Notes under the pieces: generated by a model
Seen by the model: the letters and a program-made list of their open reading frames with translations, nothing else
Database searches by the model: none
What the model was told of the DNA's origin: nothing
DNA from: Escherichia coli
GTDB lineage: Bacteria > Pseudomonadota > Gammaproteobacteria > Enterobacterales > Enterobacteriaceae
Length of the DNA stretch: 64,000 nt
Assembly: GCF_051903065.1 (NCBI RefSeq)
Contig: NZ_CP178438.1
Reading direction: 5' to 3' (one strand)
Position numbers and translations under genes: made by a program
Part shown: in pieces, positions 21,051 through 55,546 of the stretch
Numbering within the stretch: the first letter of the stretch is position 1
Layout of the letters: the number at the start of each line of letters is the position of its first letter

Positions 21051-21560
21051 GTTGGAGTCATTACCGCCGCGACCGACCGCAAGCCACGAATAAGAACGAC
21101 GGCGAATTTCGAATCGTTACCTGATGCACTGGCTTCCCAGCGTTTGACCGTAGCGTTAAGTAAATCAACAAAAGCGATGTTCACCGCTTTTCGTCAAGTC
21201 GTGCCATTTGTCAGCCAGGATCGGGTCTTTACCCCGGATATTGCAGCATCGCAAAAATTCTTAGATGGATATGCTATAAATCAAAAATAAAATCTTTGTT
21301 GATTGTTTATCATAATATCCACAGATATGATAAATGATATCAATTTAATAATTTTCACTTAATGTGATTCCGGATAATTCGAAAGGCGCTGTGCTTTTCG
21401 GATTATTATTATCTGATTAAGATATTTGTCACGCCAGCCTTACTGGTTTATAAATGTCAATCATGATTCTTATAAATTATTTATTGCTGCTTTGGTTACC
21501 ATTACTTCGTAATAAGTAATGTATTTTTGATGGTTTAAACTATTTTTAAGGGACGGCATT

Positions 21561-22153
21561 ATGCGAGGGAAAATACCTAAAACGGAACTGCTGGTGACTT
21601 TTGAGGTCGTCGCACGTCATGAAAGTTATACCAGAGCGGCAGAGGAGTTAGCGTTAACCCAAAGTGCAGTATTCAGACAAGTAAGTGCGCTGGAGGAATT
21701 TTTACGTACTCCGTTATTTTCACACTCTAAAAAACGCATTTTTCTTAATGATACAGGGAAGTATTACCTGGGGATAGTAAAAGAAACATTAAATAAGCTG
21801 GAACGCGATACCAATACCATTATGACCTGGCAGCCTACGGTTCAGGTTATTGAACTTGCCGTTAATCCTACTTTTAGTACCCACTGGTTGATCCCAAATT
21901 TACATGAATTCACAAAGTTACATCCCGATATTATTGTTAATATTCATTCTTTAGCTAATAACGGCGATTTTCTTAATCGGGAGTACGATGCTGTCATTAT
22001 GCGCGAAAATTTTTGCGCGCCCTGGGCGGAAGTAGAATATCTCTTTGATGAGGAGATTTTGCCGGTATGCAGCGGCAGTTTGCTTGCAATGTCCGATCAA
22101 AAGCTGTCAGTGGCAGAACTGCTTACTGAGTTACCGCTTCTGCATCAAAGCAC
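21561..22153 (+). pseudogene. LysR-family transcriptional regulator gene, 3'-truncated by IS903-type element
   Basis: N-terminal LysR-type HTH (ESYTRAAEELALTQSAVFRQVSALEE) and start of substrate-binding domain; frame runs straight into the IS inverted repeat at 22154; about 200 codons of an expected roughly 300. Confidence 0.7.
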
Positions 22154-23210
22154 GGCTTTGTTGAATAAATCAGATTTCGGGTAAGTCTCCCCCGTAGCGG
22201 GTTGTGTTTTCAGGCAATACGCACGCTTTCAGGCATACCTGCTTTCGTCATTTTGTTCAGCGCTCGTACCAGGGCCATAGCCTCTGCAACCTGACCATCG
22301 TAGTCACGCAGTGTCAGTGAACCCCCGAACAGCTGTTTTACCCGGTACATCGCCGTTTCCGCTATCGAGCGACGGTTGTAATCTGTTGTCCATTTCCACC
22401 GCGCATTACTCCCGGTCATTCGCTGATTAGCCACTGCACGGTTACGGTCTGCATATTCACCGGGCCAGTAACCCGCACCTTTTCGGGGAGGGATAAGCGC
22501 GCTGATTTTCTTACGCCGCAGTTCATCGTGACATAGCCGGGTATCGTAAGCGCCATCGGCGGCGGCTGACCTGATTTTCCGGTGGGTTTGCCGGATTAAC
22601 CCGGGGAAGGCCTCTGAGTCCGTAACGTTGTTCAGCGACAGGTCAGCGCAGATGATTTCATGTGTTTTACTGTCAACGGCGAGATGCAGCTTACGCCAGA
22701 TACGGCGGCGTTCCTGGCCATGCTTTTTGACTTTCCACTCGCCTTCACCGAAGACCTTCAGCCCGGTGGAATCAATTACCAGGTGTGCGATTTCACCCCG
22801 GGTGGGCGTTTTGAAACTGACATTAACCGACTTTGCCCGCCTGCTGACACAGCTGTAATCCGGGCAGCGTAGCGGAACGTTCATCAGAGAAAAAATGGAA
22901 TCAATAAAGCCCTGCGCAGCGCGCAGGGTCAGCCTGAATACGCGTTTAATGACCAGCACAGTCGTGATGGCAAGGTCAGAATAGCGCTGAGGTCTGCCTC
23001 GTGAAGAAGGTGTTGCTGACTCATACCAGGCCTGAATAGCTTCATCATCCAGCCAGAAAGTTATGGAGCCACGGTTGATGAGGGCTTTATTGTAGGTGGG
23101 CCAGTTGGTGATTTTGAACTTTTGCTTTGCCACGGAACGGTCTGCGTTGTCGGGAAGATACGTGATCTGATCCTTCAACTCAGCAAAAGTTCGATTTATT
23201 CAACAAAGCC
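22154..23210 (-). mobile_element. IS903-type insertion sequence (IS5 family), 1057 bp, no target-site duplication
   Basis: 18-bp terminal inverted repeats GGCTTTGTTGAATAAATC at both ends; single transposase ORF; flanks TCAAAGCAC vs ATTTATCAG do not match. Confidence 0.85.
22210..23133 (-). CDS. IS903-type transposase (DDE, IS5 family)
   Basis: ORF ending ...KAGMPESVRIA, recognised as IS903 transposase; start placed at the GTG giving 307 aa (longest ORF extends to 23178). Confidence 0.85.
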   Translation of the reverse strand: MAKQKFKITNWPTYNKALINRGSITFWLDDEAIQAWYESATPSSRGRPQRYSDLAITTVLVIKRVFRLTLRAAQGFIDSIFSLMNVPLRCPDYSCVSRRAKSVNVSFKTPTRGEIAHLVIDSTGLKVFGEGEWKVKKHGQERRRIWRKLHLAVDSKTHEIICADLSLNNVTDSEAFPGLIRQTHRKIRSAAADGAYDTRLCHDELRRKKISALIPPRKGAGYWPGEYADRNRAVANQRMTGSNARWKWTTDYNRRSIAETAMYRVKQLFGGSLTLRDYDGQVAEAMALVRALNKMTKAGMPESVRIA

Positions 23211-23581
23211 ATTTATCAGGCGAAAGTGGCCTCTGTTCACTCAGAAACAATCACTCCCGGTAAGTCATACCTGTTTCATCGATACATTTAAGTGATTATT
23301 ACTAATGAAACAATAACATAACGGGCTTACGGTCGGTGCTCATAAAGGCAACAATCAATTAACTTTGATAAAAATATGTTATGTAAAATAGCAACAAATT
23401 GGCTACTCTAATCAATTGGTATTATAAAAAGTTGATTGGGCGGTTCTGTTAAATAAAACACTGGTTTTTTATCTATACCTTTTCATTGTAATAATTGTGT
23501 TGCATAAATATTTCACAATAAATTAACAATAAAATCACCAATGATCTATGGTTTATACATAATTAACATATTTGGTTGGTT

Positions 23582-23595
23582 TTGATATAAATCAA
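23582..23595. promoter_or_regulatory. FNR-consensus box in cydA upstream regulatory region
   Basis: Perfect TTGAT-N4-ATCAA (TTGATATAAATCAA) about 340 bp upstream of cydA in a long AT-rich leader. Confidence 0.5.
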
Positions 23596-23932
23596 TTTTT
23601 AATTCTTGAAAAAAATCTGCAAAACACGATAAATTGTCGTAGATCAAATTGGTGAGATCGTGACAATTTCGCTATAAATTGATCACTGTCGAAAAATGCA
23701 AATTTGCTCAATAAAAACCTGTTTATTGTAAGGATTTTGCGGCGTAATATAATTACGGGATCAATTTGGTTTATTCATTAACATATTTGTAACTTTTTTA
23801 TCATTGTCTTTTCCTCTTTTGATGAAATGGCAACGATAGAGGCGAGCAAATAATTTTGTATTGGGGCATGCGTGTGACCCTTTCTAACGGGGTTCACTCT
23901 CGGAGTCTTCATGCGATGAGCAAGGAGTCATG

Positions 23933-25501
23933 ATGTTAGATATAGTCGAACTGTCGCGCTTACAGTTTGCCTTGACCGCGATGTACCACTTCCTTTTTGT
24001 GCCACTGACGCTCGGTATGGCGTTCCTGCTGGCCATTATGGAAACGGTCTACGTCCTTTCCGGCAAACAGATTTATAAAGATATGACCAAGTTCTGGGGC
24101 AAGTTGTTTGGTATTAACTTTGCTCTGGGTGTGGCTACCGGTCTGACCATGGAGTTCCAGTTCGGGACTAACTGGTCTTACTATTCCCACTATGTAGGGG
24201 ATATCTTCGGTGCGCCGCTGGCAATCGAAGGTCTGATGGCCTTCTTCCTCGAATCCACCTTTGTAGGTCTGTTCTTCTTCGGTTGGGATCGTCTGGGTAA
24301 AGTTCAGCATATGTGTGTCACCTGGCTGGTGGCGCTCGGTTCAAACCTGTCCGCACTGTGGATTCTGGTTGCGAACGGCTGGATGCAAAACCCAATCGCG
24401 TCCGATTTCAACTTTGAAACTATGCGTATGGAGATGGTGAGCTTCTCCGAGCTGGTGCTTAACCCGGTTGCTCAGGTGAAATTCGTTCACACTGTAGCGT
24501 CTGGTTATGTGACTGGCGCGATGTTCATCCTCGGTATCAGCGCATGGTATATGCTGAAAGGTCGTGACTTCGCCTTCGCTAAACGCTCCTTTGCTATCGC
24601 TGCCAGCTTCGGTATGGCTGCCGTTCTGTCTGTTATTGTTCTGGGTGATGAATCTGGTTACGAAATGGGCGACGTGCAGAAAACCAAACTGGCTGCTATT
24701 GAAGCTGAGTGGGAAACGCAACCTGCGCCTGCTGCCTTTACTCTGTTCGGCATTCCTGATCAGGAAGAGGAGACGAACAAATTTGCGATCCAGATCCCTT
24801 ACGCGCTGGGCATCATTGCAACGCGTTCCGTGGATACTCCAGTTATCGGCCTGAAAGAACTGATGGTGCAGCATGAAGAACGCATTCGTAACGGGATGAA
24901 GGCGTACTCTCTGCTCGAGCAACTGCGTTCTGGTTCTACCGACCAGGCGGTTCGTGACCAGTTCAATAGCATGAAGAAAGACCTCGGTTACGGTCTGCTG
25001 CTGAAACGCTATACGCCAAACGTGGCTGATGCGACTGAAGCTCAGATTCAACAGGCAACCAAAGACTCCATCCCGCGTGTAGCGCCGCTGTACTTTGCGT
25101 TCCGTATCATGGTGGCGTGTGGCTTCCTGCTGCTGGCAATCATCGCGCTCTCTTTCTGGAGTGTCATCCGCAACCGCATTGGCGAGAAAAAATGGCTCCT
25201 GCGCGCCGCGCTGTACGGTATTCCGCTGCCGTGGATTGCTGTAGAAGCGGGCTGGTTCGTGGCTGAATATGGCCGCCAACCGTGGGCTATCGGTGAAGTG
25301 CTGCCGACAGCTGTGGCGAACTCGTCACTGACCGCAGGCGATCTCATCTTCTCAATGGTGCTGATTTGCGGCCTGTATACCCTGTTCCTGGTGGCAGAAT
25401 TGTTCTTAATGTTCAAGTTTGCACGCCTCGGCCCAAGCAGCCTGAAAACCGGTCGCTATCACTTTGAGCAGTCTTCCACGACTACTCAGCCGGCACGCTA
25501 A
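23933..25501 (+). CDS. cydA: Cytochrome bd-I ubiquinol oxidase subunit I
   Basis: Recognised CydA sequence; start placed at second Met ([12 protein letters not shown]). Confidence 0.97.
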
Positions 25502-25516
25502 GACAGGAGTCGTCAA

Positions 25517-26656
25517 ATGATCGATTATGAAGTATTGCGTTTTATCTGGTGGCTGCTGGTTGGCGTTCTGCTGATTGGTTTTGCAGTCACTGACGGTTTC
25601 GACATGGGGGTGGGCATGCTCACCCGTTTTCTCGGTCGTAACGACACCGAGCGTCGAATTATGATTAACTCCATTGCTCCACACTGGGACGGTAACCAGG
25701 TTTGGCTGATCACCGCGGGCGGCGCACTCTTTGCTGCCTGGCCGATGGTCTATGCCGCTGCGTTCTCCGGCTTCTATGTGGCGATGATCCTCGTGCTGGC
25801 GTCTTTGTTCTTCCGTCCGGTCGGTTTTGACTACCGCTCCAAGATTGAAGAAACCCGCTGGCGTAACATGTGGGACTGGGGCATCTTCATTGGTAGCTTC
25901 GTTCCGCCGCTGGTAATTGGTGTAGCGTTCGGTAACCTGTTGCAGGGCGTACCGTTCAACGTTGATGAATATCTGCGTCTGTACTACACCGGTAACTTCT
26001 TCCAGTTGCTTAATCCGTTCGGCCTGCTGGCAGGCGTGGTGAGCGTAGGGATGATCATTACTCAGGGCGCAACCTATCTGCAAATGCGTACCGTGGGCGA
26101 ACTGCACCTGCGTACCCGTGCAACGGCTCAGGTGGCGGCACTGGTGACACTGGTCTGTTTCGCACTGGCTGGCGTATGGGTGATGTACGGTATCGATGGT
26201 TATGTCGTGAAATCGACAATGGACCATTACGCAGCCTCTAACCCGCTGAATAAAGAAGTGGTTCGTGAAGCTGGCGCATGGCTGGTTAACTTCAACAACA
26301 CGCCAATTCTGTGGGCTATTCCGGCACTGGGTGTGGTTCTGCCGCTGCTGACCATCCTGACTGCACGTATGGATAAAGCCGCGTGGGCGTTTGTGTTCTC
26401 CTCCCTGACGCTGGCCTGCATCATCCTGACAGCCGGTATCGCAATGTTCCCGTTTGTGATGCCGTCCAGCACCATGATGAACGCAAGTCTGACAATGTGG
26501 GATGCAACTTCCAGCCAGCTGACGCTTAACGTCATGACCTGGGTTGCGGTGGTTCTGGTACCGATCATTCTGCTCTACACCGCCTGGTGTTACTGGAAAA
26601 TGTTCGGTCGTATCACCAAAGAAGATATTGAACGTAACACCCACTCTCTGTACTAA
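25517..26656 (+). CDS. cydB: Cytochrome bd-I ubiquinol oxidase subunit II
   Basis: 379-aa polytopic membrane ORF immediately after cydA. Confidence 0.97.
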   Translation: MIDYEVLRFIWWLLVGVLLIGFAVTDGFDMGVGMLTRFLGRNDTERRIMINSIAPHWDGNQVWLITAGGALFAAWPMVYAAAFSGFYVAMILVLASLFFRPVGFDYRSKIEETRWRNMWDWGIFIGSFVPPLVIGVAFGNLLQGVPFNVDEYLRLYYTGNFFQLLNPFGLLAGVVSVGMIITQGATYLQMRTVGELHLRTRATAQVAALVTLVCFALAGVWVMYGIDGYVVKSTMDHYAASNPLNKEVVREAGAWLVNFNNTPILWAIPALGVVLPLLTILTARMDKAAWAFVFSSLTLACIILTAGIAMFPFVMPSSTMMNASLTMWDATSSQLTLNVMTWVAVVLVPIILLYTAWCYWKMFGRITKEDIERNTHSLY

Positions 26657-26670
26657 GTAAGGAGCTAAAA

Positions 26671-26784
26671 ATGTGGTATTTCGCATGGATTCTGGGAACG
26701 CTTCTTGCCTGTTCGTTTGGGGTAATCACCGCGCTGGCGCTTGAGCACGTCGAATCAGGCAAAGCCGGTCAAGAAGACATCTGA
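26671..26784 (+). CDS. cydX: Cytochrome bd-I small subunit CydX (37 aa); below the ORF-track length cut-off
   Basis: ATG at 26671 behind a GGAG ribosome-binding site; translation MWYFAWILGTLLACSFGVITALALEHVESGKAGQEDI; stop overlaps ybgE start. Confidence 0.8.
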   Translation: MWYFAWILGTLLACSFGVITALALEHVESGKAGQEDI

Positions 26785-27077
26785 TGAGTAAGATTATCGC
26801 AACCTTGTATGCGGTAATGGACAAGCGCCCCCTGCGGGCGCTTTCCTTCGTGATGGCGCTTCTGTTAGCAGGATGTATGTTTTGGGACCCATCACGTTTC
26901 GCCGCGAAGACCAGTGAACTGGAAATCTGGCATGGTTTATTGCTGATGTGGGCCGTCTGTGCTGGTGTGATTCACGGCGTGGGCTTTCGTCCGCAGAAGG
27001 TTCTTTGGCAAGGGATTTTTTGCCCATTGCTTGCCGATATTGTTCTCATTGTCGGGCTGATTTTCTTTTTCTTTTAA
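26784..27077 (+). CDS. ybgE: Small inner-membrane protein of the cyd operon
   Basis: 97-aa hydrophobic ORF overlapping the cydX stop (TGATG). Confidence 0.8.
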   Translation: MSKIIATLYAVMDKRPLRALSFVMALLLAGCMFWDPSRFAAKTSELEIWHGLLLMWAVCAGVIHGVGFRPQKVLWQGIFCPLLADIVLIVGLIFFFF

Positions 27078-27226
27078 ATCAGAATTCTCTTTAAAAAATT
27101 ATGGGCCGCGCCAGGCCCATAAATTTTTACGCTCCCTTAACTTGCCCTCATTCCCAAACCTCAATCGCGCGCGTATAGTAGCAGCGTTTAAAAGCTCTAA
27201 CTTTTGTTGCATTACCGGGATGTAAA

Positions 27227-28320
<1,094 letters not shown>

Positions 28321-28323
28321 GCC

Positions 28324-28752
28324 ATGGCCAGAGCGCGTGGACGAGGTCGTCGCGATCTCAAGTCCGAAATCAACATTGTACCGTTGCTGGACGTACTGCT
28401 GGTGCTGTTGCTGATCTTTATGGCGACAGCGCCCATCATCACCCAGAGCGTGGAGGTCGATCTGCCAGACGCTACTGAATCACAGGCGGTGAGCAGTAAC
28501 GATAATCCGCCAGTGATTGTTGAAGTGTCTGGTATTGGTCAGTACACCGTAGTGGTTGAGAAAGATCGCCTTGAGCGTTTACCACCAGAGCAGGTGGTGG
28601 CGGAAGTGTCCAGCCGTTTCAAGGCCAACCCGAAAACGGTCTTTCTGATCGGTGGCGCAAAAGATGTGCCTTACGATGAAATAATTAAAGCACTGAACTT
28701 GTTACATAGTGCGGGTGTGAAATCGGTTGGTTTAATGACGCAGCCTATCTAA
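28324..28752 (+). CDS. tolR: Tol-Pal system protein TolR
   Basis: 142-aa ORF, ExbD/TolR-like. Confidence 0.97.
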   Translation: MARARGRGRRDLKSEINIVPLLDVLLVLLLIFMATAPIITQSVEVDLPDATESQAVSSNDNPPVIVEVSGIGQYTVVVEKDRLERLPPEQVVAEVSSRFKANPKTVFLIGGAKDVPYDEIIKALNLLHSAGVKSVGLMTQPI

Positions 28753-28816
28753 ACATCTGCGTTTCCCTTGCTTGAAAGAGAGCGGGTAACAGGCGAACAG
28801 TTTTTGGAAACCGAGA

Positions 28817-30097
28817 GTGTCAAAGGCAACCGAACAAAACGACAAGCTCAAGCGGGCGATAATTATTTCAGCAGTGCTGCATGTCATCTTATTTGCGGCG
28901 CTGATCTGGAGTTCGTTCGATGAGAATATAGAAGCTTCAGCCGGAGGCGGCGGTGGTTCGTCCATCGACGCTGTCATGGTTGATTCAGGTGCGGTAGTTG
29001 AGCAGTACAAACGCATGCAAAGCCAGGAATCAAGCGCGAAGCGTTCTGATGAGCAGCGCAAGATGAAGGAACAGCAGGCTGCTGAAGAACTGCGTGAGAA
29101 ACAAGCGGCTGAACAGGAACGCCTGAAGCAACTTGAGAAAGAGCGGTTAGCTGCTCAGGAACAGAAAAAGCAGGCTGAAGAAGCCGCAAAACAGGCCGAG
29201 TTAAAGCAGAAGCAAGCGGAAGAGGCGGCAGCGAAAGCGGCGGCAGATGCTAAAGCGAAGGCCGAAGCGGATGCTAAAGCTGCGGAAGAAGCAGCGAAGA
29301 AAGCGGCTGCAGACGCGAAGAAAAAAGCAGAAGCAGAAGCCGCCAAAGCCGCAGCCGAAGCGCAGAAAAAAGCCGAGGCAGCAGCTGCGGCGCTGAAGAA
29401 GAAAGCGGAAGCGGCAGAAGCAGCTGCAGCTGAAGCAAGAAAGAAAGCGGCAACTGAAGCTGCTGAAAAAGCCAAGGCAGAAGCTGAGAAGAAAGCGGCT
29501 GCTGAAAAGGCTGCAGCTGATAAGAAAGCGGCAGCAGAGAAAGCTGCAGCCGACAAAAAAGCAGCAGAAAAAGCGGCTGCAGAAAAGGCAGCAGCTGATA
29601 AGAAAGCAGCGGCAGAAAAAGCCGCCGCAGACAAAAAAGCGGCAGCTGCAAAAGCAGCAGCTGAAAAAGCAGCAGCTGAAAAAGCCGCTGCAGCAAAAGC
29701 TGCCGCAGAGGCAGATGATATTTTCGGTGAGCTAAGCTCTGGTAAGAATGCACCGAAAACGGGGGGAGGGGCGAAAGGGAACAATGCTTCGCCTGCCGGG
29801 AGTGGTAATACTAAAAACAATGGCGCATCAGGGGCCGATATCAATAACTATGCCGGGCAGATTAAATCTGCTATCGAAAGTAAGTTCTATGACGCATCGT
29901 CCTATGCAGGCAAAACCTGTACGCTGCGCATAAAACTGGCACCCGATGGTATGTTACTGGATATCAAACCTGAAGGTGGCGATCCCGCACTTTGTCAAGC
30001 TGCGTTGGCAGCAGCTAAACTTGCGAAGATCCCGAAACCACCAAGCCAGGCAGTATATGAAGTGTTCAAAAACGCGCCATTGGACTTCAAACCGTAA
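28817..30097 (+). CDS. tolA: Tol-Pal system protein TolA (426 codons here)
   Basis: GTG start; N-terminal transmembrane anchor, long Ala/Lys/Glu-rich helical domain II, C-terminal domain III. Confidence 0.95.
   Translation: MSKATEQNDKLKRAIIISAVLHVILFAALIWSSFDENIEASAGGGGGSSIDAVMVDSGAVVEQYKRMQSQESSAKRSDEQRKMKEQQAAEELREKQAAEQERLKQLEKERLAAQEQKKQAEEAAKQAELKQKQAEEAAAKAAADAKAKAEADAKAAEEAAKKAAADAKKKAEAEAAKAAAEAQKKAEAAAAALKKKAEAAEAAAAEARKKAATEAAEKAKAEAEKKAAAEKAAADKKAAAEKAAADKKAAEKAAAEKAAADKKAAAEKAAADKKAAAAKAAAEKAAAEKAAAAKAAAEADDIFGELSSGKNAPKTGGGAKGNNASPAGSGNTKNNGASGADINNYAGQIKSAIESKFYDASSYAGKTCTLRIKLAPDGMLLDIKPEGGDPALCQAALAAAKLAKIPKPPSQAVYEVFKNAPLDFKP
29480..29700 (+). repeat. Imperfect tandem coding repeats in tolA domain II
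   Basis: Reiterated GCNGCNGARAARGCNGCNGCNGAYAARAAR units encoding (K)AAAEKAAADKK. Confidence 0.7.
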
Positions 30098-55364: not shown

Positions 55365-55546
55365 ATATACTCGTCATACTTCAAGTTGCATGTGCTGCGT
55401 CTGCGTTCGCTCACCCCAGTCACTTACTTATGTAAGCTCCTGGGGATTCACTCGCTTGTCGCCTTCCTGCTACTCGAATTATTTAGAGTATATCCATTTA
55501 TTATCTTTCTGCGCACTTCACGGTGCGCAGATATCTGGAGCATTTG

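Follow-up and report, generated by a model that had tools for sequence, protein, structure and literature searches.

Downstream of cydB, the gene of cytochrome bd-I subunit II, the E. coli DNA analyzed here (the window, 64,000 nucleotides in all) contains two short open reading frames. Are they genes, which proteins do they encode, and from which transcript are they expressed? We conclude, with a probability of about 0.93, that this locus represents the 3' end of the cydABX-ybgE operon of E. coli and that ybgE is likely coupled to cydX. The cyd operon has been described since 1997. Both cydX and ybgE are already known as annotated E. coli genes, and the finding is correct but ordinary. Its interest lies in the fact that a reading of the raw sequence recovered a functional 37-codon gene hidden by a 60-aa ORF filter, and in YbgE itself, a strongly conserved, operon-locked membrane protein beside an enzyme pursued as an antibiotic target.

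Layout of the locus and identity of the two proteins

The features of the region are as follows.

25517..26656, plus strand: cydB, cytochrome bd-I subunit II, the upstream neighbor (PF02322, E = 1.7e-110; RefSeq cydB)
26659..26664, plus strand: Shine-Dalgarno sequence AAGGAG of cydX, six bases 5' of the ATG (read from the sequence)
26671..26784, plus strand: cydX (formerly ybgT), 37 aa, single-helix bd-I subunit (TIGR02106, PF08173, 6RKO_X)
26782..26786, plus strand: TGATG junction of the cydX stop and the ybgE start, one base in common
26784..27077, plus strand: ybgE, 'cyd operon protein YbgE', predicted 97-aa membrane protein (NF007881, TIGR02112, PF09600)
27096..27131, plus strand: intrinsic-terminator-like hairpin ATGGGCC...GGCCCAT followed by a T-run (terminator scan, folding energy)

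The stop codon of cydB (TAA, 26654-26656) is followed 14 nt further on by cydX, which starts at ATG 26671, runs for 37 codons (MWYFAWILGTLLACSFGVITALALEHVESGKAGQEDI) and ends with TGA at 26782-26784. The ybgE frame starts at ATG 26784 and comprises 97 codons, and its stop codon ends at 27077. An earlier note, made from the letters alone, had described a 37-codon ORF with a good ribosome-binding site, a stop that overlaps the next start and a hydrophobic second ORF of 97 codons. This description holds in every part: AAGGAG lies six bases before ATG 26671, the TGATG at 26782-26786 has one base common to both frames, and the second product has a GRAVY value of 1.07 with three hydropathy peaks. 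The 37-aa ORF was indeed missing from the ORF track, being under the 60-aa default. The 901-bp stretch around cydX-ybgE occurs with at least 95% identity in 5425 of the 5426 complete E. coli genomes, and over this stretch the window is identical to strains 23CRST027, 23CRST031 and ECNB21-M121. Among the matches listed, RefSeq E. coli records annotate cydB, cydX, ybgE and ybgC here. An ORF of 37 codons is by itself no evidence of a gene, since a mechanical ORF list counts 99 ORFs of at least 20 aa within 7 kb around the locus. Because short ORFs are this common, the case for cydX and ybgE rests on homology and purifying selection.

CydX scores 70.7 bits against the NCBIfam equivalog TIGR02106 ('cytochrome bd-I oxidase subunit CydX', cut-off 31.6) and 53.9 bits against Pfam PF08173 (YbgT_YccB, cut-off 26.2). 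Over all 37 residues it has the sequence of chain X in the E. coli bd-I structures 6RKO and 6RX4 and in seven further entries. The name CydX, proposed in the earlier note, is therefore right and, judged by sequence identity with the solved chain X, CydX is a physical part of the bd-I complex. It shows a single hydropathy peak at residues 4-25, and it is encoded directly 3' of cydB in the window and in 80 of 80 species. According to the literature, the single helix of CydX packs against CydA in cytochrome bd-I. The oxidase activity needs subunit CydX (PMC4325964, PMC6005532, PMC8951039), and this requirement, together with the solved structures, bears out the claim that CydX is a functional subunit of the bd oxidase.

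YbgE scores 185.2 bits against the equivalog NF007881 ('cyd operon protein YbgE', cut-off 116), 141.8 bits against TIGR02112 (cut-off 89.55) and 116.1 bits against PF09600 (cut-off 25.2). This name is also right, given the equivalog match above cut-off and PF09600, and the window protein is 97-100% identical to E. coli YbgE database entries. Among 1.8 billion representatives the family is small, with 75 clusters at 50% identity. Its members have in common the motif W-A-V-C-x-G-x-I-H-G-V-G-F-x-P between helices 2 and 3, and G65, G67 and P81 are nearly invariant. A high-confidence AlphaFold2 model built from 34 sequences has a pLDDT of 93.9 and a pTM of 0.84. The model contains long helices at residues 15-34, 48-65 and 81-96 with short helices connecting them, and YbgE is predicted to be a small polytopic protein of the inner membrane with three hydrophobic helices. 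A sequence search of solved structures gives no match to YbgE even at E values up to 10. Foldseek comparison of the model with the PDB reaches a best E value of 4.2 with TM-scores of at most 0.41, and thus YbgE has no usable structural relative in the PDB.

The DNA upstream of the operon carries an insertion sequence. An IS5-family IS903B transposase ORF of 322 aa occupies window positions 22210-23178 on the minus strand, approximately 750 bp upstream of cydA, for which ATG 23930 and ATG 23933 are the start candidates. Window 21500-24000 is contiguous in only two of the 5426 complete E. coli genomes, 23CRST027 and 23CRST031 (both human), and IS903B lies beside cydA in one more genome, GN25. 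In the closest IS-free strain, two hypothetical genes and glmS/glmL are upstream of cydA. This insertion might affect distal regulatory sequences of cydAB.

Conservation and variation of cydX and ybgE

The species set contains one genome per species and comprises 80 loci from distinct Enterobacteriaceae species, of 229 confirmed. The earlier note had asked for conservation across the Enterobacteriaceae and had named frame disruption in close relatives as evidence against its reading. We find cydX present and intact and the core frame of YbgE intact in 80 of 80 species; disruption was looked for and is absent. The gene order cydA-cydB-cydX-ybgE is also kept in all 80 species and in four distant relatives, where a YbgE of 26-30% identity is encoded directly 3' of cydA-cydB-cydX, overlapping or abutting cydX. 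The N-terminal 14 residues of CydX (MWYFAWILGTLLAC) are invariant across the 80 species, while its length varies between 32 and 38 aa from genus to genus and the sequence of the C-terminal tail is variable. Codon 37 (window 26779-26781), compared with the loci L002, L003 and L005, encodes Ile, Ser or Asn among Escherichia lineages. This variability of the tail fits the published observation that the CydX C-terminus can be deleted without apparent effect (PMC6005532).

Both frames carry the signature of purifying selection. Variable sites at codon positions 1, 2 and 3 number 10, 1 and 26 of 29 in cydX and 39, 22 and 69 of 80 in ybgE. By the Nei-Gojobori method, with each sequence compared to the window, dN/dS is about 0.05 in cydX and 0.057 in ybgE. 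Stops interrupt most of the alternative sense frames across the 80 species, and likewise the antisense frames, for example the 77-aa frame at 26794-27027 on the minus strand. Antisense ORFs over the ybgE core were considered as genes and rejected, being stop-free in only 1 to 15 of the 80 species. We observe a 49-aa antisense ORF at window 26613-26762 on the minus strand. The annotation of strain CFT073 places an antisense gene, c0813, between cydB and ybgE in place of cydX, and an NsrR ChIP-seq peak is reported at c0813 (PMC5320621).

The junction itself varies in a few species. In three of them a repeat of approximately 130 bp is located just 3' of the cydX stop, inside the first ybgE codons.

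L028:2370-2520: repeat insertion in Raoultella terrigena
L057:1080-1235: repeat insertion in a MAG
L068:2360-2515: repeat insertion in Lelliottia sp.

The repeat cores in Raoultella and Lelliottia match both halves of the ERIC consensus (the ERIC1R and ERIC2 primer sequences) with 2-4 mismatches of 22; the copy in the MAG matches ERIC1R with 4 mismatches and ERIC2 poorly (9 of 22). The repeat is present in 1-5 copies per E. coli genome, in unannotated DNA. In the window, perfect matches to the ERIC2 and ERIC1R primers, adjacent and inverted, occur at 55408-55451 and indicate an ERIC element. Rfam scans give no match, either in window 22000-29000 at E values up to 1 or in the three ERIC-insertion loci at gathering thresholds. 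From the 3' end of the repeat ybgE gains a Shine-Dalgarno sequence (AAGGAGG, AAGAGG) and another ATG (MIKY...). In these loci ybgE is intact and uncoupled from cydX; the frame that still overlaps the cydX stop is a short remnant ORF. The three species with an ERIC separation therefore indicate that coupling between cydX and ybgE is dispensable in evolution.

A different variant is seen in Leclercia adecarboxylata NCTC13032 (L063:2372-2760), in which the ATG at the cydX stop opens a different frame from that of the YbgE core. There the YbgE frame can start only at the Met equivalent to M12 of E. coli, giving 86 aa and a 24-nt gap, so that the first 11 residues of YbgE appear dispensable. We also observe CydX-YbgE fusions of 130-135 aa in the databases (among them P0002-P0006, P0012, P0014 and P0018, of 131-135 aa). 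The fusion clusters have 1-8 member sequences, each on one contig, and come from ENA, Logan and NCBI assemblies; their frameshifts fall at differing points in the 3' end of cydX. We rejected a natural fusion protein, as small one-contig clusters with scattered frameshifts fit sequencing errors or sporadic mutations. The ybgE frame is open for some way upstream of its ATG, and single-base errors therefore readily make such fusions.

Transcript, translational coupling and alternative readings

The earlier note had placed both genes on the cydAB transcript. This fits the 14-nt gap behind cydB, the conserved gene order and the position of the only strong terminator-like hairpin, after ybgE. The terminator scan finds no terminator-like site between cydB and cydX, and the sole strong hairpin with a T-run sits 3' of ybgE. 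The hairpin at 27096-27131 has a 9-bp stem with 5 GC pairs, folds with an energy of -18.8 kcal/mol and can also form when read from the minus strand. Of 76 loci, 74 have a similar hairpin with a T-run no more than 100 nt from the ybgE stop. The cydABX-ybgE transcript probably ends at the hairpin of the window. Expression from one transcript also fits published co-regulation and the operon name. Under microaerobiosis in E. coli, cydAB and cydX-ybgE are co-induced, with log2 changes of 2.74/2.74 and 2.83/1.98; neither CydX nor YbgE is detected in the proteome of the same study (PMC8910356). In a fexA mutant of Vibrio vulnificus, cydA, cydB, ybgT and ybgE change together (PMC6764401), and cydABX-ybgE is the name used for the operon in PMC6005532.

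The two genes differ in their ribosome-binding sites. The Shine-Dalgarno duplex of cydX with the 16S 3' end has an energy of -8.4 kcal/mol in the window and a mean of -8.35 kcal/mol (sd 0.38) across the species set, strong in every species. In the 18 nt 5' of the ybgE ATG, the mean duplex is -3.1 kcal/mol, compared with -2.3 at random internal sites, and a duplex of -4.4 is reached by only 1% of ybgE sites versus 14% of random sites. No effective Shine-Dalgarno sequence precedes ybgE, in keeping with translational coupling to cydX. In 76 of 80 species the stop codon of cydX overlaps the start codon of ybgE, as T(G/A)ATG in 69 and as ATGA in 7. From this arrangement we infer that ribosomes ending at the cydX stop restart at the overlapping ATG and so translate ybgE. 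In the proposed mechanism, cydX, which begins 14 nt past cydB, is translated from a strong Shine-Dalgarno sequence of its own, and the ribosomes finishing it would most likely reinitiate at the ybgE ATG. Such reinitiation would tie YbgE output to CydX output, and transcription most likely ends at the hairpin 3' of ybgE.

Could ybgE be expressed mainly from a promoter of its own, independent of the cydAB transcript? A sigma-54 ChIP-seq site, IS08, with the motif TGGGAACGCTTCTTGCC in sense orientation, was reported inside cydX, 82 nt upstream of ybgE (Bonocora et al. 2015, PMC4591121), and the identical motif is present at window 26693-26709 on the plus strand. However, IS08 belongs to the lowest enrichment class (FAT 1) and has a low PSSM score of 6.85, and most intragenic sigma-54 sites were transcriptionally inactive under the tested conditions (PMC4591121). 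The GG and GC core of the motif falls on the first two bases of the codons for the invariant Gly9 and Ala13, while synonymous positions within the motif vary (57-90% conserved, 80 species); the motif is thus without constraint beyond coding, and on this ground we rejected a sigma-54 promoter as the main route to ybgE. The ybgE RNA also rises along with cydAB (PMC8910356, PMC6764401), and an internal promoter as the main source of ybgE expression is very unlikely. That one or both ORFs are untranslated chance frames has a negligible probability. The abundance of short ORFs (99 in 7 kb) speaks for it, as does the fact that no detection of the YbgE protein was found in the accessible literature. 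Against it, CydX is visible in solved structures, both frames are stop-free in 80 of 80 species where most of the alternative sense and antisense frames carry stops, dN/dS is about 0.05 with variability concentrated at the third codon position, and ybgE was kept by a new start and ribosome-binding site after the ERIC insertions. The selection data exclude chance frames; the chance-ORF reading is effectively refuted for CydX, and the same selection suggests that YbgE is translated.

YbgE may instead be functionally linked to the downstream ybgC-tolQRA-tolB-pal genes of the cell envelope and not to the oxidase, and ybgC-tolQRAB-pal does lie 3' of ybgE in the window, in Enterobacteriaceae and in two distant lineages. 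A conserved terminator nevertheless separates ybgE from ybgC, and the overlap of ybgE is with cydX, not with ybgC. In the distant locus L084, cydABX-ybgE is present and the tol-pal genes are absent downstream. In Azotobacter, cydA1-cydB1-cydX-ybgE adjoins the cco gene cluster and cydR (PMC4465626). The four distant relatives located after cydABX, together with L084, therefore indicate that YbgE tracks the oxidase operon and not Tol-Pal, and we consider a Tol-Pal role highly improbable.

YbgE and the bd-I oxidase in comparison with known systems

The reading that we prefer, a cydABX-ybgE operon with ybgE likely coupled to cydX, raises the question of what YbgE does beside the oxidase. Purified E. 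coli bd-I consists of CydA, CydB, CydX and CydH (YnhF), and YbgE is absent from it (PMC8951039). A kanamycin cassette between cydX and ybgE causes no oxidase-deficiency phenotype (PMC6005532), so that YbgE, or at least its coupling to cydX, is unneeded for bd-I activity in that setting. Synteny and selection suggest that YbgE may be not a stable subunit but a non-stoichiometric bd-I accessory, with a part in assembly or regulation, for example. Such an accessory reading is compatible with the cydABX synteny down to 26-30% identity, with the strong selection and with the retention of ybgE after the ERIC insertions. Possible roles include assembly, cofactor handling and condition-specific regulation. 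A more specific proposal, that YbgE is a coupled, transient or sub-stoichiometric accessory lost on purification and that the motif between helices 2 and 3 is its functional site, is tentative, and we hold the odds to be slightly against it.

The cydX of the window shows no difference from the known E. coli cydX and is the same gene: the 37 of 37 residues, the position after cydB and the strong ribosome-binding site are all the same, as are the single hydrophobic helix and the MWYFxW N-terminus. Its paralog AppX (CbdX), the small subunit of bd-II, also has a single helix and an MWY..W N-terminus, and its gene belongs to the app operon, called appABX-appC in PMC6005532. The window protein matches the AppX structure chain 7OSE_C with E = 0.015 and scores 21.7 bits against the AppX profile NF011333, under the cut-off of 57; it is CydX and not AppX. 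The ybgE of the window differs in nothing from the known gene, with a full-length equivalog match and the same operon slot. CydH/CydY (YnhF), the fourth small subunit of bd-I, is likewise a small bd-I-associated membrane protein (PMC8951039). CydH has a single helix and is found in purified bd-I; its gene, the orphan ynhF, lies outside the cyd operon. YbgE, unlike CydH, is predicted to have three helices, is encoded within the operon and is absent from the bd-I structures.
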